This document shows, piece by piece, positions 5,393 to 31,620 of a DNA stretch of 43,385 nucleotides (the stretch's first letter is position 1; the number at the start of each line of letters is the position of its first letter). The DNA comes from a candidate division WS6 bacterium OLB20. GTDB taxonomy: Bacteria > Patescibacteriota > Dojkabacteria > B142 > OLB20. The translations under genes were made by a program, and so were the position numbers. The DNA lies in assembly GCA_001567355.1 (NCBI GenBank), contig JYNZ01000007.1:1-43385 (forward strand). Direction: 5' to 3'. The notes beneath the pieces are model-generated. The model saw only the letters and a list, made by a program, of their open reading frames with translations, made no database searches and was not told the origin of the DNA.

Positions 5393-5431
5393 GGCAAAAT
5401 CAGTATTTGTTTCAGATTATGTGGAGTTCTG

Positions 5432-6523: not shown

Positions 6524-6561
6524 GGTATGTGTATCCTGAGCGTGAAATTATACCAGTTACC

Positions 6562-7224: not shown

Positions 7225-7376
7225 ACCTCAGTAGCAAAAGCGGCCCGAGGCTGTCATTATTCCGGAATGTTCTGCACAGACAGCGAACACTCTCCCTGAC
7301 ATCGTTTTAACGGTGTCGTAATTCTGATCGAAAGGTGCAAGTGCAAGTTGCAGTAAAAATAGCCACCTAACTCCTG

Positions 7377-7565: not shown

Positions 7566-7634
7566 GATGAGTTGGTAACTATATATAGTATAACGGGAAA
7601 CTGAGAATATAGTAACTGTTTTTGTATATTTTCC

Positions 7635-9410: not shown

Positions 9411-9411
9411 G

Positions 9412-9936: not shown

Positions 9937-10046
9937 GCGCCTATTGTACGACTTAGCGCTCCGGTTGCGCAATGTGTATTCAGATTGCCAAATGCGTATT
10001 GAGCAGGAGTCGTCCGAGTTGCTATAGTGAGTCATTCTTACGAGTA

Positions 10047-10544: not shown

Positions 10545-10565
10545 ATAAATTAAGTACAAAACATA

Positions 10566-11387: not shown

Positions 11388-11435
11388 AACAGTTGCCATG
11401 GCTGGCCGTCTTGGCTACACTGAAAAGAAAACGCC

Positions 11436-12560: not shown

Positions 12561-12581
12561 TTAACGCGTTACAACAAGCAC

Positions 12582-13748: not shown

Positions 13749-14242
13749 AGATTCTGACAACAATCAGCGATCACGACAGTGCGGACTATTCCGGTTTTGT
13801 ATACCGTGCAGCCGCTCGGGGTGCCTTTTTCAATGAGGCCGGACTGATGCCGCTTCTGCATGTAGGTGCTTCAGATTACTACAAGCTTCCCGGAGGAGGT
13901 ATCGAGCCAGGAGAGTCAATGGATGACGCACTGTCTCGCGAAGTACTTGAAGAGACAGGCTGCGAGCTGGCAGAGACGATACTGCTGGGTATGATAATTG
14001 AGGTGCGGTCCGAATTCAGGATGGTACAGGTATCGTTCTGCTACACAGGAAAGATTGCCACGCAGAACGCACAGCCGGAATTTACCGCTGATGAGCAGGA
14101 AAACGGTTTTGAGCTGATGTGGACAGGCGCAGATGAAGCGCTGCAGCTGCTTGCACAATCCTCTACAAAGGACTACGAATCCGACTTTATCACCAGGCGT
14201 GATGCCTCAATTATCCGCGAAGCGGGAAACGTCCTCTCCTGA
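13745..14242 (+). CDS. NUDIX hydrolase
   Basis: Nudix box LPGGGIEPGESMDDALSREVLEETG. It overlaps the upstream stop by 4 nt. Confidence 0.8.
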   Translation: MKILTTISDHDSADYSGFVYRAAARGAFFNEAGLMPLLHVGASDYYKLPGGGIEPGESMDDALSREVLEETGCELAETILLGMIIEVRSEFRMVQVSFCYTGKIATQNAQPEFTADEQENGFELMWTGADEALQLLAQSSTKDYESDFITRRDASIIREAGNVLS

Positions 14243-14277
14243 TATCAGCAACCAGGCATACTGATTCTGAACGGTAA

Positions 14278-15249
14278 TCAGGCGGGGACAGGGTTCGTGT
14301 ATGTATCTGCAGTTGTATCAACTTCAACACCTTTTTCTTCAAGCCAGCGTTCAAGATCGATTGCAGCCATGCAGCCCATGCCTGCTGCAGTGATTGCCTG
14401 ACGGTAGCGGTGATCGTTGACATCTCCCCCGACAAATACGCCTTCGACAGAGGTATGTGTCTTGTCTTTGACAACTATGTAACCCTGATCGTCAAGCTCG
14501 ACAGCATCGCCCAGAAACTTTGTGTTAGGAATATGACCGATGGCAAGAAACATTCCATCAACTGCAAGATCCGATTCTTCACCGGTCTCTGTATTTTTCA
14601 GCCTCAGCGATCCGACAACATCCTGACCCTTGACCTCCAGTACTTCTGTATTCCAGATTACTTGAATCTTCGGGTTGTTCAGGACACGGTCCTGCATGAT
14701 TTTAGATGCACGGAACTCGCCTCTGCGGTGAATCACGTAGACCTTGCTTGCAAATCGGGTAAGGAATGTAGCCTCTTCCATTGCGCTGTCACCACCACCG
14801 ATCACAGACACTACTTTGTCCCTGTAGAATGCTCCGTCACAGGTTGCACAGCTGCTCACCCCTTTACCCCAGAACTCCTGCTCACTCGGCAGCCCCAGTT
14901 TACGCGGCGAAGCGCCGGTTGCAAGGATGACTGAACGTGCCTTGTACTCATCTGCACCTACCCAGACCCTTTTTACCTCTCCGCTGAAATCGACCTTTGA
15001 GACATTCTGGTGAACGATCTCCGCCCCGAAGCGCTTTGCCTGTTTGATCATATGCTGCATCAACTCAGGTCCGACAATCCCCTCGGGGAATCCCGGGAAG
15101 TTTTCTACCTCGGTTGTGGTCATAAGCTGACCGCCAAACTCCAGGCCCGCAAAGACGAGCGGCTTAAGGTTGGCTCTGGCTGTATAGATGGCGGAAGTCA
15201 ATCCGGCAGGGCCGGACCCGATAATAATCACATTGTGAATATCTGACAT
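14278..15249 (-). CDS. trxB: thioredoxin-disulfide reductase
   Basis: GSGPAG FAD motif, redox-active CATCDG and GGGDSAMEEA NADPH motif. Confidence 0.92.
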   Translation of the reverse strand: MSDIHNVIIIGSGPAGLTSAIYTARANLKPLVFAGLEFGGQLMTTTEVENFPGFPEGIVGPELMQHMIKQAKRFGAEIVHQNVSKVDFSGEVKRVWVGADEYKARSVILATGASPRKLGLPSEQEFWGKGVSSCATCDGAFYRDKVVSVIGGGDSAMEEATFLTRFASKVYVIHRRGEFRASKIMQDRVLNNPKIQVIWNTEVLEVKGQDVVGSLRLKNTETGEESDLAVDGMFLAIGHIPNTKFLGDAVELDDQGYIVVKDKTHTSVEGVFVGGDVNDHRYRQAITAAGMGCMAAIDLERWLEEKGVEVDTTADTYTNPVPA

Positions 15250-15271
15250 GAAACGTTCCTACAAAGCTAAG

Positions 15272-15610
15272 TTATTCCTGCAGAGCTTCTTCCAGTTCCT
15301 GCTTAAGAACATCCTTGGGGCGGTATCCGATAAACTCTGCAATCACCTTGCCGTCCTTAAACAGTTTCATGTTGGGAATACTCTGAACCCGGTACAGCAT
15401 TGCAAGCTGCTGCTCATCGGGAGATTCTGTGTTAAGTTTAGTGATTTTAAGCCTGTCATGCAACTCGTCAGCAAGTTCTTCAAGCACAGGCTCCATCATC
15501 AGACAGGGACCGCACCAGCTCGCCCAGAAATCGACAAGCACAGGGCGATCGGACTTTAAAACCTCAGCAGAGAACGTTGCAGCATGCACAGGGATTGTTG
15601 TATGTGCCAT
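15272..15610 (-). CDS. trxA: thioredoxin
   Basis: WCGPC active site in a 112-aa protein. Confidence 0.92.
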   Translation of the reverse strand: MAHTTIPVHAATFSAEVLKSDRPVLVDFWASWCGPCLMMEPVLEELADELHDRLKITKLNTESPDEQQLAMLYRVQSIPNMKLFKDGKVIAEFIGYRPKDVLKQELEEALQE

Positions 15611-15627
15611 GTTTCGGTCAGTAATAA

Positions 15628-15864
15628 TTAATTTGAAAGCAGCTCGGCAAGAAAACGCTTACAGGCATCCTCCTTGTCGTCACATTCACGCATGAATTCC
15701 CAGAAGTGCTCCTGAATATAACTGTTCATTGCATTGTTAAGTGCCGAGCGGGCTGCCTTCATCTGGGTAAGAACAGCAAACGCATCCTGGTCATCAGCGA
15801 TCATTTTACCGACACCGCCGAGCTGTCCAATCACATTATTGAGCAATTGTTCCGGTGTTTTCAT
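15628..15864 (-). CDS. CsoR/RcnR/FrmR-family (DUF156) transcriptional repressor, non-canonical ligand set
   Basis: It aligns by eye with CsoR (L..I.GQ..G...M...D....LTQ..A...AL). The conserved first Cys is replaced by Ala (DAFAV). The start is set at MKTPEQ. Confidence 0.7.
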   Translation of the reverse strand: MKTPEQLLNNVIGQLGGVGKMIADDQDAFAVLTQMKAARSALNNAMNSYIQEHFWEFMRECDDKEDACKRFLAELLSN

Positions 15865-15893
15865 AGCTGATTTTGTAACTGACTGATTATAGC

Positions 15894-15910
15894 ACACCCC
15901 TGGGGGGTGT
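15894..15910. promoter_or_regulatory. candidate operator: perfect inverted repeat ACACCCC-TGG-GGGGTGT
   Basis: 7-bp arms with a 3-nt spacer, 30 nt upstream of the regulator start codon. G/C-tract palindromes are the known operator style of this family. Confidence 0.4.
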
Positions 15911-16046
15911 CAATGTGTTGCATCGGTATATATCCATACTGTAAAATTGCTCATGCACGCTATTGCAGGATACAACTCTTGGTGTGTATCTGCTCCTCTA
16001 GTCACCTCCACCCCTGCCGAAATTTCTGCCGGTTACCCGAATCGCT

Positions 16047-16664
16047 ATGTTTGCTGAGCATTTACCACGATATCAGCAGCCGCTTCCGGGATTTTTAACC
16101 TCACTACCGGAAGTCGCCTTTACTGTTCAACCTGATACCGAAACTCTGATCGGCACCGAAGCCGGTCCGCTGCTGGCACTTGTCACTCCAAGCCATATCC
16201 GCTTTCGTGACCCGGTCAGACCTGACGACTTTTTTTTCGAGGTGTATGTTCTCCAGGCGATGAGAATGCAGCGACTGCACATGGATGTACAGACACGACT
16301 GCCCGGACAGCCCGAGAGTATTTTGCAGCACAGGCTGCATGCATTTGATCTGTTTAAGCGTTCCGCCCAGCACTTCCAGCAGAACGGCATTTTTCCCAGT
16401 GTCTTTCATGGCATCTGGTATGAGGGTACTCACAACTGGAACCATCTGCACAGGCGTCGTAACAGCTCAGCCAGCGAAACAGCACGCGCACTGGAGGATG
16501 CTTTTTCTGTCAGGTGCGCACGACATATCGGATTACACCACTTCTGTATTCTTGAGGATAGTGAGTACGACGAGGATGAGGATACAACATTCACACGGAT
16601 TGAAATCTATCGCGATCCCAAGCCAGGGTTTACAATCAATCTGCAGACAGGCAGATATGACTGA
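16047..16664 (+). CDS. hypothetical protein
   Basis: A 205-aa ORF that is longer than the antisense alternatives. I recognise no motif. Confidence 0.4.
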   Translation: MFAEHLPRYQQPLPGFLTSLPEVAFTVQPDTETLIGTEAGPLLALVTPSHIRFRDPVRPDDFFFEVYVLQAMRMQRLHMDVQTRLPGQPESILQHRLHAFDLFKRSAQHFQQNGIFPSVFHGIWYEGTHNWNHLHRRRNSSASETARALEDAFSVRCARHIGLHHFCILEDSEYDEDEDTTFTRIEIYRDPKPGFTINLQTGRYD

Positions 16665-16929
16665 TTAGTCTGGAGCAGATATCATGTCCTGAAAAACCGC
16701 TCTGACCGGACAGCATCTGACCAGGCCCTCTTTGACAGAATCAGTATTTGATCCATTGCCGGATCCCTGAAACTACCTCACTGGGGGTAAATTGCGCTGC
16801 CGGATGCAGCGTTGCACGAAGTCTGGTGCCCTCCTGCGCTGAAGCTCCGAAGGTGGACCTTGCTTCTCATCCCGGGAATAAACAGTTCTAAGGTCTGATA
16901 TGATACCAGACGTAGCTTGATGCGAAGTC

Positions 16930-17004
16930 TGGTGAGCTGGCCGGGACTCGAACCCGGAACCAATTGCTTAAGAGGCAACTGCTCTACCATTGAGCTACCA
17001 GCCC
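16930..17004 (-). tRNA. tRNA-Lys (anticodon CTT), CCA encoded
   Basis: Hand-folded cloverleaf: GGGCTGG acceptor, GCTC/GAGC D-stem, anticodon loop CTCTTAA, T-arm CCGGG-TTCGAGT-CCCGG. Confidence 0.9.
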
Positions 17005-17102
17005 GCAAAGACAAACATATCGCCTGTACCAGCGATACGCGGGTTTATTATACCAGATGGGCATGAGACTTAAAACCTGCCTGCAACGGCAGAAAGGCAA
17101 TC

Positions 17103-17176
17103 TGCGTCTGGCAGGATTCGAACCTGCGACCCCCAGTTCCGGAAACTGGTGCTCTATCCAACTGAGCTACAGACGC
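17103..17176 (-). tRNA. tRNA-Arg (anticodon CCG), CCA not encoded
   Basis: GCGTCTG acceptor, GCTC/GAGC D-stem, anticodon loop TTCCGGA, T-arm GCAGG-TTCGAAT-CCTGC. Confidence 0.9.
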
Positions 17177-17191
17177 GCCGCGGTAAGAATG

Positions 17192-17265
17192 TACGCCCTG
17201 AGGGATTCGAACCCCCAACCTTCGGTTCCGAAGACCGGCGCTCTATCCAGTTGAGCTAAGGGCGC
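17192..17265 (-). tRNA. tRNA-Arg (anticodon TCG), CCA not encoded
   Basis: GCGCCCT acceptor (G1-U72 wobble), anticodon loop CTTCGGA, T-arm GGGGG-TTCGAAT-CCCTC. There is one mismatch at the top of the anticodon stem. Confidence 0.85.
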
Positions 17266-17378
17266 GTACTGCTGTGTAAATCAGACCGGTACTCTGCTTT
17301 GTCTGCTGCCTGCACACCTGCAGCGTCTGACGGCGCAGGCTGATGCAAATTGTATCATGGATTACCATGCCGGTGTTA

Positions 17379-20213
17379 TCAACCGAAGGGGCTTGCTTTG
17401 CCGGTTGCACCAGCTGCGGCGTTTTTCGGATCCATTGGAATGACTCTGTTGATCACCGGCTCCTTTGCTGCATCGACCCTCAGGAAGGCATTGCCCTTTG
17501 GACTCTTGTAAATACTGACCTGGTTTGTCTGCTCAGACGGAAATCTGTAGCCGGGCAGATCCACCGTCAGATGATATTCACCCGGCTCAGGCGAAAAGCC
17601 GTAGCGCCCGGATTCATCGGTCATCTGTACATCAATCTGACGTTCCTCACTGATGCTGAACAGACGGACAAATGCACCGGGTAGCCGGTTGCGTGTCTGC
17701 GAATTATAAACATAGCCCCAGTTGCGCTTATTGGCACCATCGAGCAGCAGAAGCAGTGCAAACTGCAGCACATACAAGACGACAACAAAGAAGTTGAACG
17801 CGACAGGGGAGATGAGTGTTGCAACAATTGAAAATGCGAGACCGCTGTATACAAGAACTGTGTTTATCCTGTGCAGGTTTTTGCGCAGATTGCGTTTAAA
17901 TTCGGCCTTCTTCGCTGCAGCAGTCATGTTGACAGCAATATCCTCAGCGATTGTTCCGTCATCCTCTTCTATCTCCACGCTGCGTTCAACTTTGCCGTAC
18001 TCAGGATGTTCGACTTCCAGCCGGAATGTTCCTTTGTCCGAAGGTAATCCGTATCTGCCCTGCAGGTCGGTAAGTTTCTCCTTAATAAATTCCTTGCCTT
18101 TGTATACGCGGACAGCAGCAAACGGAACAGGTTTTCTGGTCTTTGCGTCATAGACAATTCCCCAGACCTTATACCTCTTGCGATCCCGAACCCATCCTAT
18201 GGCATAAAGCACAAGCCTTGGCAGAGCATACAGATTTGAGAGCAGCGTAGCACCCGTTGCAAGCATCAGCAGAACCGGTGCATAGGTACCGGCAAATGCC
18301 TCAAGTCCCTCGCGTGCAACCGGTGTTGGTGTCGGGATCAGACCGGAGAACACTGACGCAGGGACAACCCCCTGTGCCTCACACAGTGTCGACTCCTCTG
18401 AAGTCAGTTCAACCGTACAGTCCATCTGATAATAAATATCTACTCCCTGAAGAAGATTGGAAAGCTCTATCACGCCCGTGTGCGAAGTTGTTGCTTCTGC
18501 CGAGACAGATTCAAAGCGCAGATTCTCGGGCTCCTGACCATACCGCATCACACAGGTGCCCGGTTCTTTTGTTGTATAGGTAATCAGCACCTGATTATCA
18601 ACATTAAGTGAGTATGGGGGTTCTGACTGGACAATACATGAACCCGTTTCGGGCAGCACAGTAATTATCTCTCCGTCAGTTGCAAATGCTCCCTCATGAA
18701 ATGCCTGCTTACCTGCCGCTGACTGCGCCCTGATTCTGAAGATATAGCGGGTATCCTCCTCAAGAGTGTCAATCGTCATGCAGTGACCGGTAACACGGTA
18801 TTCCTGTCCGGTAGCAGTCGATTTTGTATAAACTGCAGCCTCATACAGGCCATACGAAACTGATCCCTTGGTGGGAATATTGGTATCCCAGCAGACTGTC
18901 ACCGCAGTTGGAGTGTTGTTCGTTACAGTGACGTTCGAGATAGTTACAGGCACCTGGCATGCCAGCTGAAGTGGATCTTCAGAGCAGCTAATAACCGGTG
19001 GCTCAACCACAACAGTAGCAGTGCCGCTTGCTGTCGGTGTAACAGAAACTGAGGTCTCGGGGCTTGGAGTCACTGTCGGACTTGGTCCAACCACAGTAAT
19101 ATCCGCTGTAGTTGCAGTCAGAGCGCCGTTTATTGTATCTGTCACGGTTACTGTATATGTACCCCCTTCAAAGAATACCAGTGAATCAGTAAAGGTACGG
19201 GAGCCGGAATCACCAGATGAGAATGTGTAGTTTGCCGGCAGTGCAGCAGTCGGCGATGTGGATGAAAACGTCACGGTGCCGGCGTACGTCGGATCCTGGG
19301 ACATACTCCCGTCAAGCGCCGTGACCGTCAGCGATATGGGATCCCCTGCATTAACAGATGTAGCACTTGGTGAGATTGAGAGTGATTCAACTGTACTGAC
19401 GATAAAGTCGGGCTGGTTTGATCCGTTATTTCCGTACTCGACCCATGAACCGTTGATACCGTCAGTTACATTCACTACACGTGCCCGCCACTTGTACGAC
19501 ACGCCAGGTGTAAGTCCGGCAATCTGGGCTTCGGAAATAAGTGCAGTCCCTCCGGTATACGCCTGAGGAGGCGCTGTAGAAATGCCGAGAACGCCGGGCT
19601 CATCAGTGACGTCTACTGCTACAACATTTGTACCGGTAAAGACCTGTCCTGTCTCAACAACCTCAAATTCTGCCTGCAATGTTGCCGGATTCCCGGGAGT
19701 TGCGCCGGGGTCTGAAATGTTTACTTTCAGTACGACCTCCTGCTCCTGCGTTCTGCCCCCGACAGGGATTGTTGTCAGTGCATCGGATTTGAACTGTTCA
19801 CGGAATGTCGGTGTTGACGGGATGGTTGCAATATCAGGATACGTTCCGACCTGCCCGACCTGACCGCCACTGCTTGTTCCCTGTGCCACTGAGACAGATC
19901 CGTTAACGTTACATGGTCCAAGTGTTGTCAGGATGGAAATACGTCCTCCACCGCCTCCACCTCCGTCAAATGCTTCATCTCCGCCATCTCCACCCTCTGC
20001 TGAGAGCGTTCCATTAATATCACATGTTTCTCCCTCGATCAGAATACTGCCTCCTGCACCACCTCCTCCACCCGGCGAGGCGATAAGGCCATTGGTCCCA
20101 TCCATCAGAATGTCACCGTTGATAATACGTCCCCGGTTCTGGCCCTGATGCAACCGCACCTCCACCCCGTCCTCCGGCTGCACCGGCACCTGAAGGTCCT
20201 CCGCCCGAACCAA
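17379..20213 (-). CDS. giant protein segment 3: end of Gly-rich module A', Ig/FN3-like domains, C-terminal multi-TM module with two CarboxypepD_reg-like domains
   Basis: In-frame sense begins near 20156 (RLHQGQNRGRIINGDI...). The strings GGGGAGGSILIEG, GGGGGGGRISIL and SYKWRARVVN mirror the N-terminal module. The C-terminus has hydrophobic helices flanking WGIVYDAKTRKP... and WGYVYNSQTRNR... beta-sandwich-like units. Confidence 0.75.
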   Translation of the reverse strand: MVRAEDLQVPVQPEDGVEVRLHQGQNRGRIINGDILMDGTNGLIASPGGGGGAGGSILIEGETCDINGTLSAEGGDGGDEAFDGGGGGGGRISILTTLGPCNVNGSVSVAQGTSSGGQVGQVGTYPDIATIPSTPTFREQFKSDALTTIPVGGRTQEQEVVLKVNISDPGATPGNPATLQAEFEVVETGQVFTGTNVVAVDVTDEPGVLGISTAPPQAYTGGTALISEAQIAGLTPGVSYKWRARVVNVTDGINGSWVEYGNNGSNQPDFIVSTVESLSISPSATSVNAGDPISLTVTALDGSMSQDPTYAGTVTFSSTSPTAALPANYTFSSGDSGSRTFTDSLVFFEGGTYTVTVTDTINGALTATTADITVVGPSPTVTPSPETSVSVTPTASGTATVVVEPPVISCSEDPLQLACQVPVTISNVTVTNNTPTAVTVCWDTNIPTKGSVSYGLYEAAVYTKSTATGQEYRVTGHCMTIDTLEEDTRYIFRIRAQSAAGKQAFHEGAFATDGEIITVLPETGSCIVQSEPPYSLNVDNQVLITYTTKEPGTCVMRYGQEPENLRFESVSAEATTSHTGVIELSNLLQGVDIYYQMDCTVELTSEESTLCEAQGVVPASVFSGLIPTPTPVAREGLEAFAGTYAPVLLMLATGATLLSNLYALPRLVLYAIGWVRDRKRYKVWGIVYDAKTRKPVPFAAVRVYKGKEFIKEKLTDLQGRYGLPSDKGTFRLEVEHPEYGKVERSVEIEEDDGTIAEDIAVNMTAAAKKAEFKRNLRKNLHRINTVLVYSGLAFSIVATLISPVAFNFFVVVLYVLQFALLLLLDGANKRNWGYVYNSQTRNRLPGAFVRLFSISEERQIDVQMTDESGRYGFSPEPGEYHLTVDLPGYRFPSEQTNQVSIYKSPKGNAFLRVDAAKEPVINRVIPMDPKNAAAGATGKASPFG

Positions 20214-23200
20214 GCGTTACCGGTTCGCGCTGACTGCCGTACGCTGTCCCGCCTGATGGTGAAGGATTGCCTCCGTCATTTTCACCGTTGCCTCCATTGC
20301 CTCCATGTGCTCCTCCTGCACCACCGGACTGCCCCGCTCCTGCGGCACCAGTACCCGGTCCCGTGCTTGAAGAAAAGCCTCTGCCGACGCCATCGATAAC
20401 GGCTCCGGAACTGAGGGTGAAGTCTCCTTCGACCTGCAGAATCGATCCGCGATTGGCATTTGTATCAACAGCCGGTCTGATATGAACATTAGTACCGATA
20501 TATACGTTGTGGAAGTTACTGATGCCGGCAGGCAGGTTATCTGCGTAGCCGCCATTTGAATACTGACTGCTGTTAGAAATATACAGGTCACCGTATCCCT
20601 CGTTGTACTCGGATCCGACTTCTACATAGACGGTACCCGGACCTCCCCAGAATGAACCATACTGCCCGCGACCGCCGGCTGCGTTAAACCTGCTGAATGT
20701 CACCAGATCAAGCGGTGCAATACCGTTGTCGCTGTCACCATTGAAATTTGTATGAACAGCTATCCTGCCACCGCTTCCCGCTGTTCCACCATTACCTCCT
20801 GACCCGCCGATGGCAGTGTACGACCCGCTGCCTCCAACGATATCAGCCTCAACAAGAATGCTACCACCTGCACCGGGATCAAGCGCGTTTCCATCCGTAC
20901 CCGAGCCGTTAGCAGCGATAGTACCATTGTTCAGAAGTGTACCTGTTGAACTGCCGTCATCAATGATCAGCCTGATAGCGCCGCCGCCTGACGCAGTGCC
21001 GCCGCCTGATCCAAGATGCAGTGGATAACGGAAATCACCGTAGGGATTGCCGCCGCCTGATGCATACCCGCCGTATACACCGGGACCGTTTGTTGCATAG
21101 CCTGGACCTCTGTCCGCTCCATAACCGAGACCTGATGCCGTTACAAGTCCGCCCGCCTCTACCTCCATACGGTCAAGCCTGAGTGTTACGCCTCTGTCAC
21201 CATCTGAGTAGTCAGTGTCCCCGTCGTTGTATCCTGACAGGGTCAGCACTCCGCTACTCGCGACCCGGAGATCCGAAAACTCATACTCGCCGGTGTTGTT
21301 AGACCAGGTATTGCCGTACAGAACCATTCCTCCCGGAAGGACATCTCCGATAACTATATCCGCATCCTCTGTGCTGTCACCAAGACTGAGAACACCTGCA
21401 ACATTAAGGTCATATCCATTGATATACAGAGGGTCAGGGCCGTTGAGTGTGCCGTAGATCGTTAGGTCAGGATACGAAGCGTCTCCGGTAATCCCGTTAG
21501 AATCCGCGATGTTGACAACCGAGTTCTGTCCGATGACGCTCAGTCTTCCCGCCCGTGTCAGATTAATAGCAGCAAATGTATATTCTCCTTCAGGCAGACC
21601 TGAGGAATGACCGTTGGAATTATTCTGCTGATCAATATATAACAGACCTCCCTGTGACTGATGAACACCTGCCTGTTCGATGTAGATGGAACCGGGACCT
21701 CCCCACCAGGATCCGAAGTTGCCACGACCGCCCACTGCACTGATGTGGCCGCCCAGCGGGTTATAGTCAAATTCTGCAATGGATCTGTTGGTGTCACCAT
21801 TCTCACTGAAGTAAAGAGCGATACGTCCGCCGCCGCCGGGCTGGCTGGCATTGGATGTGCTGCCCCCGGACGCCGAGATTGAGCCGGTACCGCCCAGCAG
21901 GTGCGTGGTTACATAGATTGAACCTCCCGAACCTGCATCTGCTCCGCCTCCGGCTCCGGATGACCGGATCGAACCGTTAACGACGAAATCACCACCCCCG
22001 TTACCATCATCAATTACGAGCCGGATTGCGCCACCACCCGCAAAACCGTCACCACCGCTGCCCAGGTGGACCGGTGCATAGACATCGCCATAGATAGACG
22101 AGAGCGGGGCACCACCTCCCTGACCTCCATATGATCCTGCATTGCCTGATACGTATCCGGGTCCTCTGTCAGGGCTGTAACCCAGCGAGTCTGCTGTAAC
22201 CACTCCTCCGTTTGCGATATACATGTTTTTCAGGAGCAGCGTTAGTCCCCAGTCATTAGTGTAGTTTGTATCACCATTATTATGGCTGATGAGGGTCAGC
22301 GTACCGTTTGAGTTTACTGTCAGGTCACCCAGTTCATATGGAGTGTCCGCATCATGGGCCCAGGTAGAAGCACGCAGTGTGAGACCTCCACGTTCAACAC
22401 CTCCAACAGTCAGGTCCGCGTCACTGTTGATACCAAAATTCATCTCACCGTTGATATCGACATCAACCCCGCTGATTGTTATGCTGTTCGGCGCATTAAA
22501 CGTTCCATCAATCCGCAGATTCGGAAAGCTGGAATCCCCTGTCAGACCGTCAGAATCGGTTATGGTCAGATTAGAGGCCTGTCCAAGCACTATCAACTGA
22601 CCTGCTCTTGTCAGTTTAACGCGCTCAAACTGATAGTTGCCCTGCGGAAGACCTGCAGAATATCCGGATGAATTGTTTTGCTGATCGACATAGAGTAATC
22701 CTCTCTCTGGAGCCGAGAGTCCTATCTGGTCAATATAAATGGTACCCGGACCACCCCACCAGCCGCCAAAATTACCGCGACCGCCCGCTGCCGAAATATT
22801 ACCAAGCGATGGATCAAAATTTGCGGGAGGAATGTTGTTAATCGCGTCTCCGTTTTCCCTGTAATACACAGCGATTCTTCCTCCGCTTCCGGGTCTGGAG
22901 GCGTTTGAAGTACTTCCGCCGTTAGCTGTTATCGAACCAGTGCCGCCTATGGTATCAGCATTTATCCAGATACTGCCCCCCGAGCCTGCAGCCGAGTCTC
23001 CACCGGAACCGTTGGCAGTGATTGACCCGTTATTAATCAGCTGACCGACTTCTCCCGGACCGGTGATATCAAGCCGTATTGCCCCTCCTCCTGCAAATAC
23101 ACTGCCACTGCCCAGAGCATCAGGAGTATAAACACTTCCATAAATTGCTGATGTCGGTGCCCCAAACCCCTGACCTCCATAGGAACCTCCCTGACCGCTG

Positions 23201-24189
23201 ACAAAGCCCGGTCCTCGTGATCCCGGATAGCCAAGTCCGTCTCCGATAACTCTTCCACCTGCATCAACCCTCAAGAGTTCGGCCTGCAGAGTCAATCCCC
23301 AGTCATCGGTATAGAGTGTATTGCCGTTCTGATAGCTGTAAAGGGTCAGCCTGCCCTGGCTGGCTACATGTATTGCGTTAAACTGGTACTGGTTTGTCTG
23401 ATTGTGTGCCCATGTGTTTGCTCGCAGCTTGATACCACCGGTTACAGTATTACCAAGGATAAGATCGGCAGACGTATTGTCCCCGCCAAGATTGATCTCA
23501 CCGTTAATATCGACTTCAACACCATTAATCGTAAATGTTTGCGGAGCGACAAGTGTTCCATATATCAGGAGGTCTGACGCAGAGCTGTCACCGACCAGTG
23601 AATCAGAATTTACAAGGGTGAGAACAGATGATTGTCCCAGCTGAGCAAGCAGTCCTGCGCGGGTCAGCTCTATCCGTTCAAACTGATAGTCGCCCGGGGG
23701 CAGTGATGCATACTGACCGGCTGTATTGTTCTGCTGATCAACATACAATAGACCTTTCTGTGGCTGATGAATGTTTCTCTGTTCGACATACTTTGTACCG
23801 GGGCCTCCCCACCATGATCCGAAATTACCTCTTCCACCAACAGCTACCAGCCTGTTTGCTGTCGGTGTAAAGTCAAAGGCAGGGATACTGTTTCCGGGAT
23901 CCCCGGACTGGTTGTAGTAGACAGCAATTCTGCCGCCACCACCCGGACGGGATGCATTTGAGGTGCTGCCGCCATTTGCAGAGATTGATCCGGTACCGGC
24001 AATAATATCTGTGTCAACCCAGATGCTGCCGCCGGAGCCGGCGTTTGACGATCCTCCTGCACCACTTGACGTGATTGAGCCGTTGATGACAAGCCGTCCT
24101 GTTTCTGAGCCGTTGCGTGTAATCAGTTTTACTGCTCCTCCTCCTGCAAAACCCTGGGCGCCGCTGCCAAGCTCCTGCGCTGATAGACA
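20113..24189 (-). CDS. giant protein segment 2: tandem 351-aa repeats and the start of module A'
   Basis: The track ORF 20113..23748 starts mid-repeat at a TTG. The same frame is open up to 24189 and encodes ...ELGSGAQGFAGGGAVKLI...GGRGNFGSWWGGPGTKYVEQ..., the missing part of the repeat. Confidence 0.75.
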   Translation of the reverse strand, partial: CLSAQELGSGAQGFAGGGAVKLITRNGSETGRLVINGSITSSGAGGSSNAGSGGSIWVDTDIIAGTGSISANGGSTSNASRPGGGGRIAVYYNQSGDPGNSIPAFDFTPTANRLVAVGGRGNFGSWWGGPGTKYVEQRNIHQPQKGLLYVDQQNNTAGQYASLPPGDYQFERIELTRAGLLAQLGQSSVLTLVNSDSLVGDSSASDLLIYGTLVAPQTFTINGVEVDINGEINLGGDNTSADLILGNTVTGGIKLRANTWAHNQTNQYQFNAIHVASQGRLTLYSYQNGNTLYTDDWGLTLQAELLRVDAGGRVIGDGLGYPGSRGPGFVSGQGGSYGGQGFGAPTSAIYGSVYTPDALGSGSVFAGGGAIRLDITGPGEVGQLINNGSITANGSGGDSAAGSGGSIWINADTIGGTGSITANGGSTSNASRPGSGGRIAVYYRENGDAINNIPPANFDPSLGNISAAGGRGNFGGWWGGPGTIYIDQIGLSAPERGLLYVDQQNNSSGYSAGLPQGNYQFERVKLTRAGQLIVLGQASNLTITDSDGLTGDSSFPNLRIDGTFNAPNSITISGVDVDINGEMNFGINSDADLTVGGVERGGLTLRASTWAHDADTPYELGDLTVNSNGTLTLISHNNGDTNYTNDWGLTLLLKNMYIANGGVVTADSLGYSPDRGPGYVSGNAGSYGGQGGGAPLSSIYGDVYAPVHLGSGGDGFAGGGAIRLVIDDGNGGGDFVVNGSIRSSGAGGGADAGSGGSIYVTTHLLGGTGSISASGGSTSNASQPGGGGRIALYFSENGDTNRSIAEFDYNPLGGHISAVGGRGNFGSWWGGPGSIYIEQAGVHQSQGGLLYIDQQNNSNGHSSGLPEGEYTFAAINLTRAGRLSVIGQNSVVNIADSNGITGDASYPDLTIYGTLNGPDPLYINGYDLNVAGVLSLGDSTEDADIVIGDVLPGGMVLYGNTWSNNTGEYEFSDLRVASSGVLTLSGYNDGDTDYSDGDRGVTLRLDRMEVEAGGLVTASGLGYGADRGPGYATNGPGVYGGYASGGGNPYGDFRYPLHLGSGGGTASGGGAIRLIIDDGSSTGTLLNNGTIAANGSGTDGNALDPGAGGSILVEADIVGGSGSYTAIGGSGGNGGTAGSGGRIAVHTNFNGDSDNGIAPLDLVTFSRFNAAGGRGQYGSFWGGPGTVYVEVGSEYNEGYGDLYISNSSQYSNGGYADNLPAGISNFHNVYIGTNVHIRPAVDTNANRGSILQVEGDFTLSSGAVIDGVGRGFSSSTGPGTGAAGAGQSGGAGGAHGGNGGNGENDGGNPSPSGGTAYGSQREPVTLGSGGGPSGAGAAGGRGGGAVASGPEPGTYYQR

Positions 24190-25565
24190 TCACCGTAGGT
24201 ACTTGTGATCCCGCTTGCGAATCCCTGACCGCCGTAAGAACCTCCACCGCCCGAGACAAATCCCTGTCCTCTGTTTGCAGGGTGACCGTAACCGTCAGCG
24301 CTTATCCTGCCTCCTGCGTCAACAGTGATGTCATCCGCAGTCAGTACAAGTCCCCAGTCATCCGTATAGTTTGTATTACCGTTCTGAGCGCTGATCAGTT
24401 CCAGGACTCCCTTTGATGCAACATGAACCGATTCAAACTGATACTGGTAGTTCTGATCATGCGCCCATGTAGACGCGCGCAGGCGAAGCCCCGCATTGAC
24501 ACTGTTTCCAACCGTAACAGATGAATTGGAAGTATCTCCGCCAAGATCAATCTCTCCATTAATATCCACCGTTACTCCGTTAATCTCGAGACCGTCAGGA
24601 GCAATAAACGTTCCATAATTGAGGAGTATCGGCGCAGTAGTGTCACCGGTCAGGCCTGAAGAGTCAGTGATAGTAAGAGTGCTGGCGTTTCCAAGCACCA
24701 TCAGATGTCCCTGCCTTGTTAGCGAGAGCAGTTTAAAGCGGTAGTCACCCTCAAGCAGACCTGCCTGATAACCTGCTGAATTATTCTGCTGATCAACAAA
24801 AAGAGAGCCCTGTGTGGATACGTCCACACCTGTCTGCTCTACATATATGGTTCCGGGGCCGCCCCACCATCCTCCAAAGTTCCCTCGTCCGCCGACTGCA
24901 GCGATTCTGCTGTTTGCCGGGTTGTAATCAAATGCGGTTATGCCTGCCCCGGTATCACCGTTCTGCTCAAAGTAGAGAGCGATTCTGCCTCCACCACCCG
25001 GGCGGAAGGCACCGGAAGTGCTGCCTCCGTTAGCAGCAATTGATCCGGTACCACCAAGCACATCGGTTATCACCCAGATCGAGCCGCCCGAACCTGCATC
25101 TCCTGCTCCTCCTGTGCCGTGTGCCTGGATTGATCCGTTAACATCAACATATCCGTTATCTACAACCAGCTTGATCGAGCCTCCGCCTGCAAATTCGTCA
25201 CCACCGCTGCCAAGGTTGACTGGCTCATAGACACTTCCGTTTATTGTTGTTGTCCCGGCACCAAATGCCCGACCGCCGTAAGATCCGCCCGTTCCGGATC
25301 CGCTGTAACCGGGTCCTCTGTCGGCACGGTATCCGTTACTGTTTGCTGCGATCGCAGCACCTGTATCAATACGGATATTATCTGCCAGAATGGTTACTCC
25401 GAAGTCGTCGGTATAGTTTGTGTTTCCGTTCTCAAACGGACGGACAGTGAGCACTGCCGAATTTGTAACCAGAATGTCGAGACCTCTGCAGTCAAATATT
25501 CCCTGATTATTCGTATCGGCGGTCCAGGTCTGATTCAAATCGATCAGACCATCCGGATCCGGACA
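20586..25565 (-). repeat. about 4.7 tandem copies of a ~1,053-nt (351-aa) coding repeat
   Basis: The DQQNN phase marker sits at 24794, 23739, 22686 and 21633 on the minus strand. Spacings are 1055 (across the frame break), 1053 and 1053 nt. A last degenerate copy ends near 20586. Confidence 0.85.
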
Positions 25566-27584
25566 GCTGCCGAGCGCAGTGACCACTGCCACGGTGTTAG
25601 AATATCCAGCAGCAACACCGTCCAGTACACGGATCTTAATACTGGCTTCGGTATCATAGGAGAGATTATTAATGCTTTTGATGCCGTTATCTGCCGGGCT
25701 GAACGTCACAGATGAGGGTGATAGTGTCCCGCCGAGAGCTGCGTTTGTATCAGCGGGGTCTACCGCGGTGAGAGACGGTGAGCCCGAGTAATCTGTCTTA
25801 ACATTATTGTACTGGTCGTAGGCTGTTACTGTTACCGTATCCATTGAAGCGGAGACCAGAGCAATCTGCGGTGCAGTGATTGTGAAGTAACTGATCGCAT
25901 CCGGTGTTGCCGTAAACGTAAACTCCACCGGACTTCCGGACAGACCCGAACCAGAAGCCCGAACTCTGTTTGTACCTGCGATTCTGCCAAGTGAGTATGT
26001 TCGTGTACTGATTCCGTTCTGATCTGTTGTACTGCTGCCTGATGTCAGGACACCTCCGTTCTGCCCTTGTGTCACAGACCAGGTCACGTTATACCCCGGC
26101 ACCGGAAAGCCGCTGCTGTCGGTGACAAGTACCACCAGCGGATCAGCAAGTGCAGTAAAAACGGTCCCTGTCTGGGAATTACCGCTGACGAGGGAGATAT
26201 TGGCAGCAAGTCCGGCAACAAGAACATCGCGATCTGTTTCAGCATTTCCACCAAATGATGCCCATGTGCTGAACCCGCCTTTGCTGTCACGCACACGAAC
26301 CTGCCAGTGGTACTCGGTACTTCTGGTCATTCCGGTTACCGTAATCCTGCCGCAGTTGCCAGGAGGGGTGAGACATGTCTGGGGATTTGCCTGATTGTTT
26401 GCCTGCGTATGAGTCGGAACATTCGTAAACGGCGTGCCGATTGGCCTGACCTCCAGCTGCAGCGCGAGAGTCTCACCTGCATCGATATCAGACATGTCGG
26501 CAGCAAATACAACCGTGTTTTCGGATGTGGCCTGCCCGACCAGAATCTCCGTTGTATTATTGGACCTGAACTGCTTGAGAATTGTCGGAGTATCAGGTCG
26601 GCACGTTGGTCCAAGCCTGCTGCCTGTACCACCATCCTGCGATGATTCCGTCTGACCGCCTGTGACTGTTGCGGAACCGGTAAAGTCATTATCACTGATA
26701 CAGAACATTCGCAGTCGGCCGCCACCACCGCCGCCACCCTGGTATGTAGCGTTTTCAGCTCCTCCGCCATTTGCCTCGACAGTACCGCCACCGGAGAAAG
26801 TCTGTGCCTCAATCCAGATACTGCCGCCTGCGCCGCCACCTCCGCTGCCGTTTGCACTGGCTGTGCCTGCAAGTCCGTTTGCAGAGATGCGTCCATTGAT
26901 CACGAGATTGCCTGAGACTTCAAGTCTGATTGCTCCACCGCCTGCTCCTCCCGCGCCACCTTCACCCGCGTCGCTGCCTGCAGAACCGAGTGTAAGCGGT
27001 TCCTCAGCATTACCGTAGGGAAGACCGGGAGCACTTGCAGGATTCGTCTGGTCTGCATTACCTTCTCCACCAGCGCCGCCATGCCCTCCTCCTGAACCTC
27101 CGGTCTGTCCGGATGCTGCGTCAGGTGTACCGTTGGCTGCCTCAGACTGGGCATCGGTGTAGCCCATACCGTCAGCATGCAGAACTCCTCCAGGCTCTAT
27201 CGTAAGGTTGCTGACGCGCAGCGTTCCTCCCCAGTCGCCAGAAGTAGATCCGTTTTCGGTCACAAAACTTGAGATGATTACTTCGCCGCCGTTACCGATA
27301 ATGATATCCAGCGTTTCGCAGTTGATGACGCCATCATCCCCGTCGGGTGTGACGACAATCTGTGAGGTAATAACCGCCGGTGCAGCCGGAAGAGGACAAA
27401 CCTGCTCAGCTGCGATTCTCTGAAAGAATCTGAACATGCTTAACAGGGCGAAGAGCGACCCGACAGCAACAAAAGCGATCAGGGTCAGATAAATGAATGT
27501 CTCAAACTGACGCGTGCGCTTTGTCAGTCCGGGCAGACGTTGAATAAGAGGATCCAGCTGTACTTTGAAACGTTTCTGGCTCAT
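24129..27584 (-). CDS. giant protein segment 1: signal-anchor, Gly-rich module A, Big_1/Ig-like domains, first 1.7 repeats
   Basis: ATG at 27584. TM helix FIYLTLIAFVAVGSLFALLSMF. An invasin/intimin-like Ig stretch (SLVSGNSQTGTV...VTDSSGFPVPGYNVTW). The last ~17 codons (QRRSLAAAPRVLQEEEQ) are out of frame. Confidence 0.8.
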   Translation of the reverse strand: MSQKRFKVQLDPLIQRLPGLTKRTRQFETFIYLTLIAFVAVGSLFALLSMFRFFQRIAAEQVCPLPAAPAVITSQIVVTPDGDDGVINCETLDIIIGNGGEVIISSFVTENGSTSGDWGGTLRVSNLTIEPGGVLHADGMGYTDAQSEAANGTPDAASGQTGGSGGGHGGAGGEGNADQTNPASAPGLPYGNAEEPLTLGSAGSDAGEGGAGGAGGGAIRLEVSGNLVINGRISANGLAGTASANGSGGGGAGGSIWIEAQTFSGGGTVEANGGGAENATYQGGGGGGGRLRMFCISDNDFTGSATVTGGQTESSQDGGTGSRLGPTCRPDTPTILKQFRSNNTTEILVGQATSENTVVFAADMSDIDAGETLALQLEVRPIGTPFTNVPTHTQANNQANPQTCLTPPGNCGRITVTGMTRSTEYHWQVRVRDSKGGFSTWASFGGNAETDRDVLVAGLAANISLVSGNSQTGTVFTALADPLVVLVTDSSGFPVPGYNVTWSVTQGQNGGVLTSGSSTTDQNGISTRTYSLGRIAGTNRVRASGSGLSGSPVEFTFTATPDAISYFTITAPQIALVSASMDTVTVTAYDQYNNVKTDYSGSPSLTAVDPADTNAALGGTLSPSSVTFSPADNGIKSINNLSYDTEASIKIRVLDGVAAGYSNTVAVVTALGSCPDPDGLIDLNQTWTADTNNQGIFDCRGLDILVTNSAVLTVRPFENGNTNYTDDFGVTILADNIRIDTGAAIAANSNGYRADRGPGYSGSGTGGSYGGRAFGAGTTTINGSVYEPVNLGSGGDEFAGGGSIKLVVDNGYVDVNGSIQAHGTGGAGDAGSGGSIWVITDVLGGTGSIAANGGSTSGAFRPGGGGRIALYFEQNGDTGAGITAFDYNPANSRIAAVGGRGNFGGWWGGPGTIYVEQTGVDVSTQGSLFVDQQNNSAGYQAGLLEGDYRFKLLSLTRQGHLMVLGNASTLTITDSSGLTGDTTAPILLNYGTFIAPDGLEINGVTVDINGEIDLGGDTSNSSVTVGNSVNAGLRLRASTWAHDQNYQYQFESVHVASKGVLELISAQNGNTNYTDDWGLVLTADDITVDAGGRISADGYGHPANRGQGFVSGGGGSYGGQGFASGITSTYGDVYQRRSLAAAPRVLQEEEQ

Positions 27585-29474: not shown

Positions 29475-30893
29475 TTATGATACAGCATTTGTACCTGCCG
29501 GGTACCTGATCAGTTCAGGATTTTTCTCCTTCCAGTATCTCATCACCGGATCAATGAAGTCCCAGGCTGCAGCCAGCTCCTCAGCACTGAGAAAGAGATT
29601 CCGGTTAAGCCTGATCACATCAAGCAGAATCTTTTCGTAGGCATCGGGCAGCATGTTTGTAAACTGGCTCTTATACTCAAAATCCATTGTGACTGTCTCA
29701 AGCTTTGCGTGTGTGGGCTTTTTCACTTTCATCTCGAGACTGATGCCCTCTTTAGGCTGTATGCGAAAGATAAGCCTGTTTTCACCAGTCAGACCCGCGA
29801 CCTCCTCCATCGGTTTGTAATGCAGAATAAGCTCGGTACGTTTTTCTGCCATGCGCTTTCCTGAGCTTATGACGACATCAAGACCATCCCATCTTCCGCC
29901 CTCTACGTTTGCGTGAAGTCTGACCATTGTCTCGGTGTCTGAATCCTGCGGGATACCCTGCTCATCAAGATATCCCGGTACAGCACTGCCTTCAATCACT
30001 CCGGCAGCGTACTGCCCGCGGATTACATCATCCTCGGGTGATGCGATCCTGAGAGAGGATATGGCTTCAGCCTTGGCATGCCGGATGGCATCAGTGTCAA
30101 AGTCTGACGGGATATCAATCAGCACCAGTGCCAGCAGCTGCAGAATATGACTCTGTACCATGTCGCGAAGATGACCGTAACTGTCGTAGTACGATCCTCT
30201 TCCCTCGACGCCAAGCGTCTCATGCGCAACGACTTCAATCCTGTCTATCCGCTTCTGCGACCAGTCACTGATAAACACCGGATTGCCTGCTTTAAAGTAC
30301 AGAAGATTCTGTACAGTCTCCTTTCCAAGATAATGGTCGATACGATAGATCTGACGTTCCTCAAAAACTGAAGTAACAAAACTGCTAAGCTCATCAAAAG
30401 ACTGTCGATCACGTCCGAACGGCTTTTCGATGACAAGCCGTGTATCTTTTATGTTGCCGCAGATCTGTTTCATCTGGGTGTGGCGGATACCTTCAAACAC
30501 CTGCTCATAGAGGTCAGGGCTGATGGCAAGATAGAGTATTTTGTGCGTGCAGACACCGAGTCGCGTGTCGATACTGTTAAGTTTGTCAGCAAGTGCCGCG
30601 TACGCCTCATCATCATTAAAGTCACCACGGGCATAGGTTATTCGCTTTGCAAAACGCTTCCATGATGACTGTTCGTACATGCCGTTTGCATACTGCTTAA
30701 CCGCCTCTTCAGCATAATCCCTGAAGCTGCTGTCGGTGTAGTCCCTTCTGGCAAAGGCCACGATTTCGCAGGAGTCCGGAAGCAGCCCCTGCCTGTCAAG
30801 ATTATATAAGGCCGGCAGAAGTTTACGGCTGGTCAGATCGCCTGTCGCTCCGAAGATAACAAGGATTGTAGGGATGTTGAGATGCTCTGTCAT
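29475..30893 (-). CDS. zwf: glucose-6-phosphate 1-dehydrogenase
   Basis: IFGATGDLTSRKLLPALYNL NADP motif and RIDHYLGKE active-site motif. The ATG at 30893 lies 1 nt after the pgl stop. Confidence 0.92.
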   Translation of the reverse strand: MTEHLNIPTILVIFGATGDLTSRKLLPALYNLDRQGLLPDSCEIVAFARRDYTDSSFRDYAEEAVKQYANGMYEQSSWKRFAKRITYARGDFNDDEAYAALADKLNSIDTRLGVCTHKILYLAISPDLYEQVFEGIRHTQMKQICGNIKDTRLVIEKPFGRDRQSFDELSSFVTSVFEERQIYRIDHYLGKETVQNLLYFKAGNPVFISDWSQKRIDRIEVVAHETLGVEGRGSYYDSYGHLRDMVQSHILQLLALVLIDIPSDFDTDAIRHAKAEAISSLRIASPEDDVIRGQYAAGVIEGSAVPGYLDEQGIPQDSDTETMVRLHANVEGGRWDGLDVVISSGKRMAEKRTELILHYKPMEEVAGLTGENRLIFRIQPKEGISLEMKVKKPTHAKLETVTMDFEYKSQFTNMLPDAYEKILLDVIRLNRNLFLSAEELAAAWDFIDPVMRYWKEKNPELIRYPAGTNAVS

Positions 30894-30894
30894 G

Positions 30895-31620
30895 TCAGGG
30901 GTTCTGGTCAGTAAAAACTGTCGCATCCACAGCACTGAGTATCAGCGCAGGATGTACAGGTATCATTGTCTCCCATGCTTCTTCGGGATATGAGGCATCA
31001 AGTTTTGCAAGATCGCTGATAATCCGGGCCTTTTTCTCTCCACGGACGTAACAGAAGACAGCATCAGCCTGTTTTATCATTGCAGGTGTAATTGTGATCC
31101 GTCTGGGATGGATAGTGTCAAGCTCGTGCGCGACAGCAAGTTCATCAACAAAAAACGTATCAGCAAATGCTGGATTCTCTGCAGGCAGAATCCCGGCAGT
31201 ATGACCGTCCGTGCCGATGCCGAGCATCGAGATGACAAAATAACCGCTCGCAAGTGCCTCTTCAAGGAGGGCATTAAATGCATCGGCCTCTTCCTGGTGC
31301 GACTTTCCACCAAGAATATCTACCAGGCGTGCCCCCCGTTCCCGCAGAAAATGATAGAACGATGTATTACGGAACTGCACCCAGTCGGAATGCTCATGCT
31401 CAGGATCTGTGTCCCAGCGTTCATCGCCCATCATGACCATAAGCTTTGTGTAGTCAAGATGTTCATCAATATAGGTAGGAAGTTCGTTGTATACATCAGC
31501 AGCGCTGCCACCGGCAAGCAGAAGCAGGACATGGTCATGCTCTGCAAGCGAGGTCTCAAGCAGCGAAGCGAGGTGCTGTGCCGCCTGAATCTGGGGAGAT
31601 CTGCTGACTTCGAATTTCAT
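30895..31620 (-). CDS. pgl: 6-phosphogluconolactonase (glucosamine-6-P isomerase/6PGL family)
   Basis: LLLAGGS... and the LGIGTDGHTAGILP motif. It is translationally coupled to zwf. Confidence 0.8.
   Translation of the reverse strand: MKFEVSRSPQIQAAQHLASLLETSLAEHDHVLLLLAGGSAADVYNELPTYIDEHLDYTKLMVMMGDERWDTDPEHEHSDWVQFRNTSFYHFLRERGARLVDILGGKSHQEEADAFNALLEEALASGYFVISMLGIGTDGHTAGILPAENPAFADTFFVDELAVAHELDTIHPRRITITPAMIKQADAVFCYVRGEKKARIISDLAKLDASYPEEAWETMIPVHPALILSAVDATVFTDQNP

Follow-up and report, generated by a model that had tools for sequence, protein, structure and literature searches.

Three open reading frames of a Dojkabacteria (WS6) contig as the remains of one giant β-solenoid surface-protein gene with two probably genuine frameshifts

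Three consecutive open reading frames (ORFs) on the minus strand of contig JYNZ01000007.1 from candidate division WS6 bacterium OLB20 (43,385 nt, referred to here as the window) are shown, by repeat phase, stop and start codon distribution and ortholog alignment, to be the remains of one ancestral gene. The locus spans ~10.2 kb, or 23.5% of the window, and its conceptual product is a giant surface protein with a repetitive β-solenoid core and membrane helices at both ends. We estimate a probability of about 70% that the ancestral single gene carries two real single-base frameshifts here and that this copy has been recently inactivated or truncated. The original prediction, made from the letters of the window alone, had proposed a single ~3,400-aa gene with two 1-nt breaks covering about 24% of the window; repeat phase and intact orthologs that cross both junctions now bear this out.

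The minus strand is open in three frames, from 27605 to 24132 (ORF1), from 24189 to 20116 (ORF2) and from 20216 to 17382 (ORF3, 945 codons). ORF1 has an ATG at 27584 and encodes 1151 aa, while the first possible start in the ORF2 frame is a TTG at 23748; gene callers accordingly give products of 1151, 1211 and 928 aa at the locus. ORF1 and ORF3 lie in one frame and ORF2 is shifted relative to both. Addition of one base near 24181–24182 and removal of one near 20154 yields a fusion product of 3,402 aa. The frames and junctions on which the argument turns are as follows.

24129..27584, minus strand: ORF1, the exact product of which is present on three contigs
20113..24189, minus strand: the ORF2 frame, 1358 codons, first start at 23748
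24180..24183, minus strand: junction 1, within repeat unit R2, −1 shift needed (placed by motif, repeat period and ortholog alignment)
20140..20160, minus strand: junction 2, within module A', +1 shift needed (placed by 65% identity to the ortholog L047 over 209 aa spanning it)

Translation of the frames places both breaks within recognizable protein motifs. At junction 1, the ORF1 reading makes sense as far as TYGDVY, the TAT codon of which ends at 24183, and then runs through 17 out-of-frame codons to a TAA. This tail is QRRSLAAAPRVLQEEEQ; the truncated product terminates in YGDVYQRRSLAAAPRVLQEEEQ, and its first 1134 residues are those of the ancestral giant protein. From 24180 the ORF2 frame reads AQELGSGAQGFAGGGA (AQELGSGAQGFAGGGAVKL). 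The joined sequence, Y-G-D-V-Y-x-A-Q-E-L-G-S-G, completes the repeat motif YG.VY.P..LGSG..FAGGGAI, for which the counterparts in other repeat copies are YGSVYTPDALGSG, YGDVYAPVHLGSG and YGSVYEPVNLGSG. Because only two bases (CA) separate the two readings (TAT-CA-GCG), the window is one base short at this point. The proposal that ORF2 begins in the middle of a repeat, and that its frame, open up to 24189, encodes the missing remainder, is thus supported by completion of the motif at 24180. At junction 2, ORF2 ends in GGRGGGA(V) at about 20155 and the ORF3 frame resumes with (L)HQGQNRGRIINGDI from about 20153, which leaves one surplus base near 20154, its exact site uncertain within about 15 nt. 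Past the junction ORF3 continues as HQGQNRGRIINGDILMDG, where the paralogous N-terminal module has GGAGGGAIRLEVSGNLVINGRISANG; this module and the L047 alignment agree with the proposal that ORF3 continues a Gly-rich module broken at GGGAV.

At the DNA level, the start-to-start spacing of four direct-repeat families is 1053, 1053 and 1056 nt, and 1055 nt wherever junction 1 is crossed. Between 24189 and 23749 the ORF2 frame contains not a single ATG, GTG or TTG over 147 codons, yet it encodes a perfect repeat. The ORF1 frame contains 47 stop codons between the junctions, and the ORF2 frame 53 past junction 2. These stop counts and the start-less 147 codons argue against separate genes and for one former gene. 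Could the locus nevertheless consist of three working genes that make a split giant protein in pieces, perhaps reassembling afterwards? The three products of the gene callers, the GGAGGA that precedes the GTG of ORF3, and the start and membrane helix that ORF1 retains would fit such an arrangement. However, the first TTG of ORF2 lies mid-repeat with no obvious Shine–Dalgarno (SD) sequence, an export signal is missing from ORF2 and from the ORF3 ectodomain of 640 residues, the GGAGGA is a mere pair of Gly codons, and the orthologs are single ORFs. We consider a split set of working genes highly improbable.

Orthologs were sought in two ways. A scan with the repeat alignment covered one genome per GTDB species and returned 79 distinct loci; many genomes of the candidate phyla radiation (CPR), Chloroflexota and the Planctomycetes–Verrucomicrobia–Chlamydiae (PVC) group share the solenoid segment alone, and three loci share the whole architecture. 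Homologs of ORF3 were found by exhaustive HMMER search, whereas word-indexed searches, flooded with low-coverage matches to Ig-like and Gly-rich sequences, missed true orthologs. In a Candidatus Dojkabacteria metagenome-assembled genome (MAG; locus L047), a single ORF of 3,751 aa is collinear with the fusion, at 38% identity over residues 1–2155 and 53% over residues 2379–3402, out to the very C-terminus. G6PD, DUF4230 and DUF218 genes lie upstream of it in the same order as in the window, and a thioredoxin-reductase-like (TrxB-like) gene with 78% identity lies downstream; on alignment and gene order, this ORF is the positional ortholog, and it marks the window as DNA of a Dojkabacteria/WS6-type CPR bacterium. 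A 3,959-aa ORF in a genome labelled Saccharibacteria (L004) spans junction 1 at 44% identity (E = 9e-28).

The HMMER search gave about 20 representative clusters of 3,300–4,600 aa in which the C-terminal ~900 residues match ORF3. Five members (P0133–P0136 and P0142) are single ORFs of 3,384–3,597 aa. In P0135 (3,387 aa) and P0136 (3,384 aa), residues 2488–3379 align to ORF3 residues 29–924, exactly as the fusion predicts, and both proteins share the N-terminal helix, a CPLP motif, module A, the repeats, module A' and the C-terminal module. Further members are P0131, P0152, P0170 and P0174, and identity to the window copy is 36–68% by segment. The intact single-ORF orthologs that the original prediction had suggested looking for in related MAGs therefore exist (L047, L004, P0133–P0136 and P0142), and they are single ORFs rather than three separate genes. 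By these alignments the gene is normally a single continuous ORF; the window copy agrees with the family in collinearity, in its five units and in genomic position, and departs from it in lacking a single uninterrupted frame.

Several observations indicate that the frameshifts are real. The exact ORF1 product, including the frameshift tail, is found on three contigs of 20–50 kb and the ORF3 product on two. One of the contigs compared, a Logan contig from run SRR29904086 (L001), matches the window base for base over 14.7 kb (100% identity over 14,660 nt) and has different ends; ThyA of the same organism was found also in run SRR29904083. Neither junction lies in a homopolymer. The repeat copies are only 63–76% identical at the DNA level, so that confusion between them by the assembler is unlikely; misassembly between repeats is rejected on this divergence together with the continuous repeat register across junction 1. 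More than 30 other genes of the window, including those for ThyA, TrxB, RecF, Dus, G6PD and trigger factor, are full length as judged by family matches, and no other gene in the window is broken. JGI metagenomes, scanned for an exact pattern of the junction 1 flanks separated by a 1–4-nt gap, gave no match, and hence no near-identical intact strain. We infer from these data that the shifts are genuine and do not stem from assembly noise, and that the gene was recently inactivated or truncated.

A number of points weigh against this reading. No nonsense mutation or other decay is present across 10 kb in any of the three segments, and both lesions are single-base indels. Two indels without a stop are compatible with inactivation, although the absence of nonsense mutations means that the inactivation, if real, was very recent. 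The same features would be expected if the gene were intact in the organism and the breaks were sequencing, assembly or consensus errors, for example a minority indel allele introduced by bubble popping, and a systematic error could be common to the assemblies of one project; given the recurrence of the broken products, we regard such an error as unlikely. The three contigs with the ORF1 product may not come from independent libraries, and a second, intact paralog may exist elsewhere in the genome, as relatives can carry two tandem copies. With regard to the protein itself, Foldseek found no significant structural neighbour of the repeat unit (best E = 0.23), no sortase gene was found in the 43-kb window, and we infer, rather than observe, the function, topology, sortase processing and N-helix cleavage of the giant protein.

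The ortholog in another assembly, that of candidate division WS6 bacterium GW2011_GWE2_33_157 (L003), is also split, into 5977..10017, 9977..10978 and 10885..15549. Its two breaks, within 9940..11010, fall at equivalent points of near-identical DNA repeats, with spacers of 7 nt and 2 nt between EGTIV and IAGVNS. They appear assembly-related, which lends some weight to an error in the window as well; they suggest local trouble in the assembly or a hypervariable spot, and the sites differ from those of the window.

A further alternative is that the frame changes are bypassed by programmed −1/+1 ribosomal frameshifting or switched by reversible phase variation. Surface adhesin genes are a classic case of phase variation, the two shifts, being opposite in sign, leave ORF1 and ORF3 in one frame, and the downstream frames are perfectly preserved. 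On manual reading, however, neither junction contains an X XXY YYZ heptamer, a +1 site of the stop-codon or rare-codon type, a homopolymer or a simple repeat; nor are the shifts conserved, since L047, L004 and P0131–P0136 are continuous. Recoding or classical phase variation is unlikely for these two reasons, and we rate it as extremely improbable. The opposite signs do not make the shifts compensate each other, a possibility ruled out by the 47 ORF1-frame stops between the junctions.

If the frameshifts are real, the giant protein is probably not made in this population. The cell could then produce and export the ORF1 product alone, which comprises 1.35 solenoid units preceded by the membrane helix, module A and the Ig domains. 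The region of ORF2, start-less for 147 codons, would lack an export signal, and ORF3 would depend on a fortuitous GTG with an SD-like sequence and would have a 640-residue ectodomain without a signal.

The anatomy of the conceptual protein was established from Pfam matches, structural models and a tiled self-comparison of the fusion, which, together with alignment, defined the repeat units and modules. Its parts, all on the minus strand, are listed from the N-terminus to the C-terminus; K/R denotes Lys and Arg, FN3 fibronectin type III, Ig immunoglobulin and TM transmembrane.

27429..27584, minus strand: K/R-rich cytoplasmic tail and N-terminal hydrophobic helix (residues 30–48), from hydropathy; kept in orthologs
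26595..27398, minus strand: module A, a Gly-rich β-solenoid half-unit (repeat-profile positions 41–218; AgmC_N far below threshold)
26235..26594, minus strand: FN3-like domain after module A (EYHWQVRVRD), sub-threshold match to Pur_ac_phosph_N, homologous to the domain after A'
25608..26138, minus strand: two Ig-like domains, the first Pfam Big_1 (ORF1 residues 483–558)
20338..25607, minus strand: five tandem 351-aa β-solenoid units (tiled self-comparison, alignment, profile and an AlphaFold2 model of R3)
24555..25607, minus strand (read 25607..24555): R1, fusion residues 660–1010
23500..24551, minus strand: R2, fusion residues 1012–1362
22447..23499, minus strand: R3, fusion residues 1363–1713
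21394..22446, minus strand: R4, fusion residues 1714–2064
20338..21390, minus strand: R5, fusion residues 2066–2416
19638..20337, minus strand: module A', second β-solenoid half-unit, 39% identical to module A
18351..19637, minus strand: FN3/Ig-like stalk, comprising an FN3-like domain (YKWRARVVN), a Big_1-like Ig domain, Pfam fn3 (18693..18938) and a last β-sandwich
18642..18656, minus strand: LPETG in a linker between domains, 126 residues N-terminal to TM1
17382..18350, minus strand: C-terminal membrane module (CarbopepD_reg_2, AlphaFold2, Foldseek and charge distribution)
18225..18281, minus strand: TM1, followed by an interfacial helix
17931..18161, minus strand: transthyretin-like sandwich 1
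17733..17870, minus strand: TM2–TM3 hairpin
17427..17717, minus strand: second sandwich

Pfam matches, self-comparison and family collinearity support the domain order originally proposed. Matches above the gathering threshold were obtained for Big_1 (39.6 vs 34.9 bits), fn3 (38.2 vs 25 bits) and CarbopepD_reg_2 (49.8 vs 32.2 bits). In ORF3, fn3/Pur_ac_phosph_N at ORF3 residues 426–507 and two CarbopepD_reg_2 matches all exceed threshold, while ORF2 has no Pfam match. Nothing credible was found in Pfam at E ≤ 10 for the repeat, module A or module A', and the solenoid core as a whole is without a Pfam, NCBIfam or PDB family match. PDB profile and sequence searches were empty for the repeat and ORF1, and with ORF3 matched FN3 domains only.

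The repeat copies are 53–60% identical to the reference copy, and the diverged fifth 39%; the earlier count of about 4.7 repeats of 351 aa thus corresponds to four full units and a diverged fifth. In a repeat-profile search, nearly all family members tested proved to have five units, of which four are full and one is shortened, in closely similar positions; the fusion likewise has five ~351-aa units between ~residue 660 and ~residue 2400. This constancy argues that the repeat number is ancient and conserved. Modules A (about residues 63–330) and A' (about residues 2417–2650) are 38.8% identical over 165 aa (E = 1.5e-9), each is trailed by a related FN3-like domain, and both are similar to the Gly-rich middle of the repeat unit (profile positions ~40–218). 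That A' is a diverged copy of A therefore stands, although the two ends are not mirrored as had been suggested, the copies being direct and in the same orientation.

The AlphaFold2 model of R3 is all-β, with a mean local confidence (pLDDT) of 79 and a predicted template-modelling score (pTM) of 0.86. Foldseek searches of the PDB with this model gave β-helix neighbours, namely tapirins, pectate lyase, filamentous haemagglutinin (FHA), Ag43 and tailspikes, all of them non-significant (E ≥ 0.2). We read the 351-aa unit, on the strength of this model, as a putative β-solenoid segment without a close solved relative.

The C-terminal 323 residues were modelled with a pLDDT of 86. The chain begins with a membrane helix and a short helix that bears a conserved YPR motif. 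A transthyretin-like sandwich follows, then a long helix that passes into a tight hairpin of helices joined by a 4-residue loop, and finally a further sandwich. In Foldseek comparisons, the sandwiches superpose on the carboxypeptidase D transthyretin-like (TTL) domain at 2.4–3.3 Å. The structural comparison originally recommended thus left the repeat unit without a significant neighbour and matched the C-terminal sandwiches to the TTL domain. In 26 family members, K/R residues are clustered in every linker adjoining a sandwich (net charge +3.3, +3.6 and +1.8), and neither the hairpin loop nor the ectodomain side of TM1 is positively charged. Under the positive-inside rule, this pattern would put both sandwiches on the cytoplasmic side.

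Of 48 members, 27 have an LP.TG motif in the 260 residues that precede the first C-terminal helix, as compared with 0.66% of shuffled sequences. The motifs fall into two classes. In the first, which holds the LPETG of the window, the motif lies in an inter-domain linker about 120–147 residues upstream of the helix. In the second, it stands directly before the helix and a K/R cluster, which is the layout of a sortase signal, but about 260 residues follow. Members with a notable LPXTG include P0133, P0170, P0183 and P0189. In the window protein, about 280 residues follow TM1. CPR genomes can encode sortase (PMC7143001).

These features suggest a topology for the intact protein. The K/R-rich N-terminus would remain in the cytoplasm and a single helix would insert the chain (N-in), leaving ~3,050 residues outside the cell as a rigid β-solenoid rod, made of a half-unit, five 351-aa units and a second half-unit, with Ig/FN3 spacers. 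The C-terminus would cross the membrane three times, with its two transthyretin-like sandwiches on the K/R-rich side, presumably the cytoplasm. The LPXTG ahead of the first C-terminal helix may serve as the site at which a sortase passes the ectodomain on to the cell wall. Anchoring at both ends, as originally proposed, is plausible, but the N-terminal helix could be either a signal-anchor or an uncleaved or cleaved Sec signal, and many members have an LPXTG ahead of the C-terminal helices. The intact protein would most likely act in adhesion or in contact with a surface or partner cell, in line with the host attachment that has been proposed (PMC8080830) for giant membrane proteins of CPR epibionts.

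One may go further and picture an undescribed envelope fibre, in which the five-unit β-solenoid acts as a ‘ruler’ of fixed length in every lineage, the N-terminal helix inserts the fibre, sortase transfers it to the wall at the LPXTG and the C-terminal stub persists as a functional membrane or cytoplasmic module, the whole being switched off here and conditionally dispensable for the epibiont. Within such a scheme the stub, with three helices and two transthyretin-like domains facing the cytoplasm, could be a wall-sorting signal expanded into a device for signalling or anchoring. We give this extended picture rather little credence.

Comparison with known systems places the protein among giant surface fibres or adhesins, distinct by its shaft of five 351-aa solenoid units and its C-terminal module of three helices and two sandwiches. 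Vampirococcus lugosii has ten membrane-localized giant proteins of 1,392–4,163 aa (PMC8080830), and likewise devotes a large share of a tiny genome to membrane-anchored surface proteins with a proposed role in host recognition or attachment; compared by description only, those proteins have WD40, TPR and PKD domains, whereas the window family has a Gly-rich β-solenoid. FHA/TpsA proteins, Ag43-type passengers and the tapirins of Caldicellulosiruptor resemble the repeat model in having a long right-handed β-helix as extracellular shaft. Unlike the β-solenoid adhesins of diderms, however, the family has α-helical membrane segments as its anchors and belongs to a CPR envelope of the monoderm type. 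No Pfam match to a TPS (two-partner secretion) domain or β-barrel translocator was found in the three ORFs at E ≤ 0.1, and a TPS or autotransporter adhesin is rejected on this account, the C-terminus consisting of α-helical TM segments and β-sandwiches.

The SdrD-type MSCRAMMs (microbial surface components recognizing adhesive matrix molecules), which are Gram-positive LPXTG proteins, have in common with the family both Ig-like domains and CarboxypepD_reg/SdrD_B-like sandwiches. The LPXTG, hydrophobic helix and K/R cluster are alike, but the family adds about 260 residues forming a sandwich, a TM hairpin and a second sandwich; judged by this layout, the window protein does not look like a canonical LPXTG protein. 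A weak likeness of the Gly-rich A/A' segment to the N-terminal domain (NF047640) of AgmC, an adventurous-gliding protein of Myxococcus, does not amount to membership of AgmC_N, with scores of 24.4 and 16.4 bits against an NCBIfam cut-off of 275.

The layout common to the family, as read from the alignments, is an N-terminal helix, module A with its FN3-like domain, Ig domains, five units, module A' with its FN3-like domain, Ig/FN3 domains, often an LPXTG, and an end with three TM helices and two sandwiches. The window copy differs in its two frameshifts, and some members differ in having lectin inserts or an LPXTG immediately before TM1. On these alignments the family is populated but unnamed, its intact form being a conserved envelope protein of ~3,400–4,000 aa in Dojkabacteria (WS6) and some other CPR bacteria, among them MAGs labelled Saccharibacteria. 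Its members are recorded as ‘hypothetical protein’ or without a name, and our literature search found no description of this giant-protein family, only general statements on CPR giant proteins. The view that the architecture could not be assigned to a described family holds in so far as the core lies outside curated families and the protein belongs to no characterized one, but the architecture is not unique to the window.

Such proteins show that genomes of ~1 Mb in the CPR (Patescibacteria) still keep 10-kb surface-protein genes, and they are prime candidates for host-cell-binding molecules outside Saccharibacteria. An unannotated family with a strictly conserved five-unit β-solenoid shaft, an unusual C-terminal membrane module, a frequent LPXTG and occasional lectin inserts is a target for structural and cryo-electron tomography work on Dojkabacteria. 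Automatic annotation splits such genes into ‘hypothetical’ fragments, which repeat phase and ortholog collinearity can recover. The broken state, if real, suggests that the fibre can be lost under some conditions.

Other members of the family, and other carriers of the repeat, show some variation. Two intact paralogs, P0135 and P0136, stand head to tail over about 20 kb (3018..23181) on a contig of JGI metagenome 3300069644 (L082), and a 3,391-aa protein of P0135's 90% cluster (P0279) is encoded on a 988-kb contig. Lectin-type inserts occur between unit 5 and module A', of the F5/8 type C kind in P0131 (residues 2573–2686) and as Laminin_G_3 in P0174 (residues 2508–2639); P0131 also has Laminin_G_3 near its N-terminus (residues 84–238). 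The inserts in these two proteins fit a binding role. Anaerolineae/Thermoflexales MAGs of the Chloroflexota (L014, L032, L034 and L012) contain frames of 2,500 to >6,300 codons with the 351-aa unit at 30–35% identity and without the CPR-type end modules. The presence of the unit in these frames suggests that giant proteins of several phyla use it as a mobile building block.

In the window, genes for G6PD (glucose-6-phosphate dehydrogenase) and a 6-phosphogluconolactonase-like protein lie directly upstream of the giant gene (29475..31620, minus strand), and the order G6PD–DUF4230–DUF218–giant gene is that of L047. After the giant gene come three tRNA genes, Arg-TCG, Arg-CCG and Lys-CTT (16930..17265, minus strand), the first of which starts 113 nt past the stop codon. 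A Cys-rich 304-aa protein encoded at 42259..43173 (minus strand) has weak matches to DUF11 and a tip-pilin Ig-like domain and a C-terminal hydrophobic helix, features that make it a probable further surface protein; unannotated membrane-protein genes (41651..42238 and 40513..41688) adjoin it. Tandem genes at 11436..12560 and 12582..13748 (plus strand) encode paralogous membrane proteins of 374 and 388 aa without a Pfam match, which resemble one gene of L047 (33% and 26% identity). Finally, 6529..14242 contains a dense nucleotide-metabolism cluster, with genes for thymidylate kinase, a dCTP deaminase-like protein, DHFR (dihydrofolate reductase)/RibD_C, thymidylate synthase and three NUDIX hydrolases.

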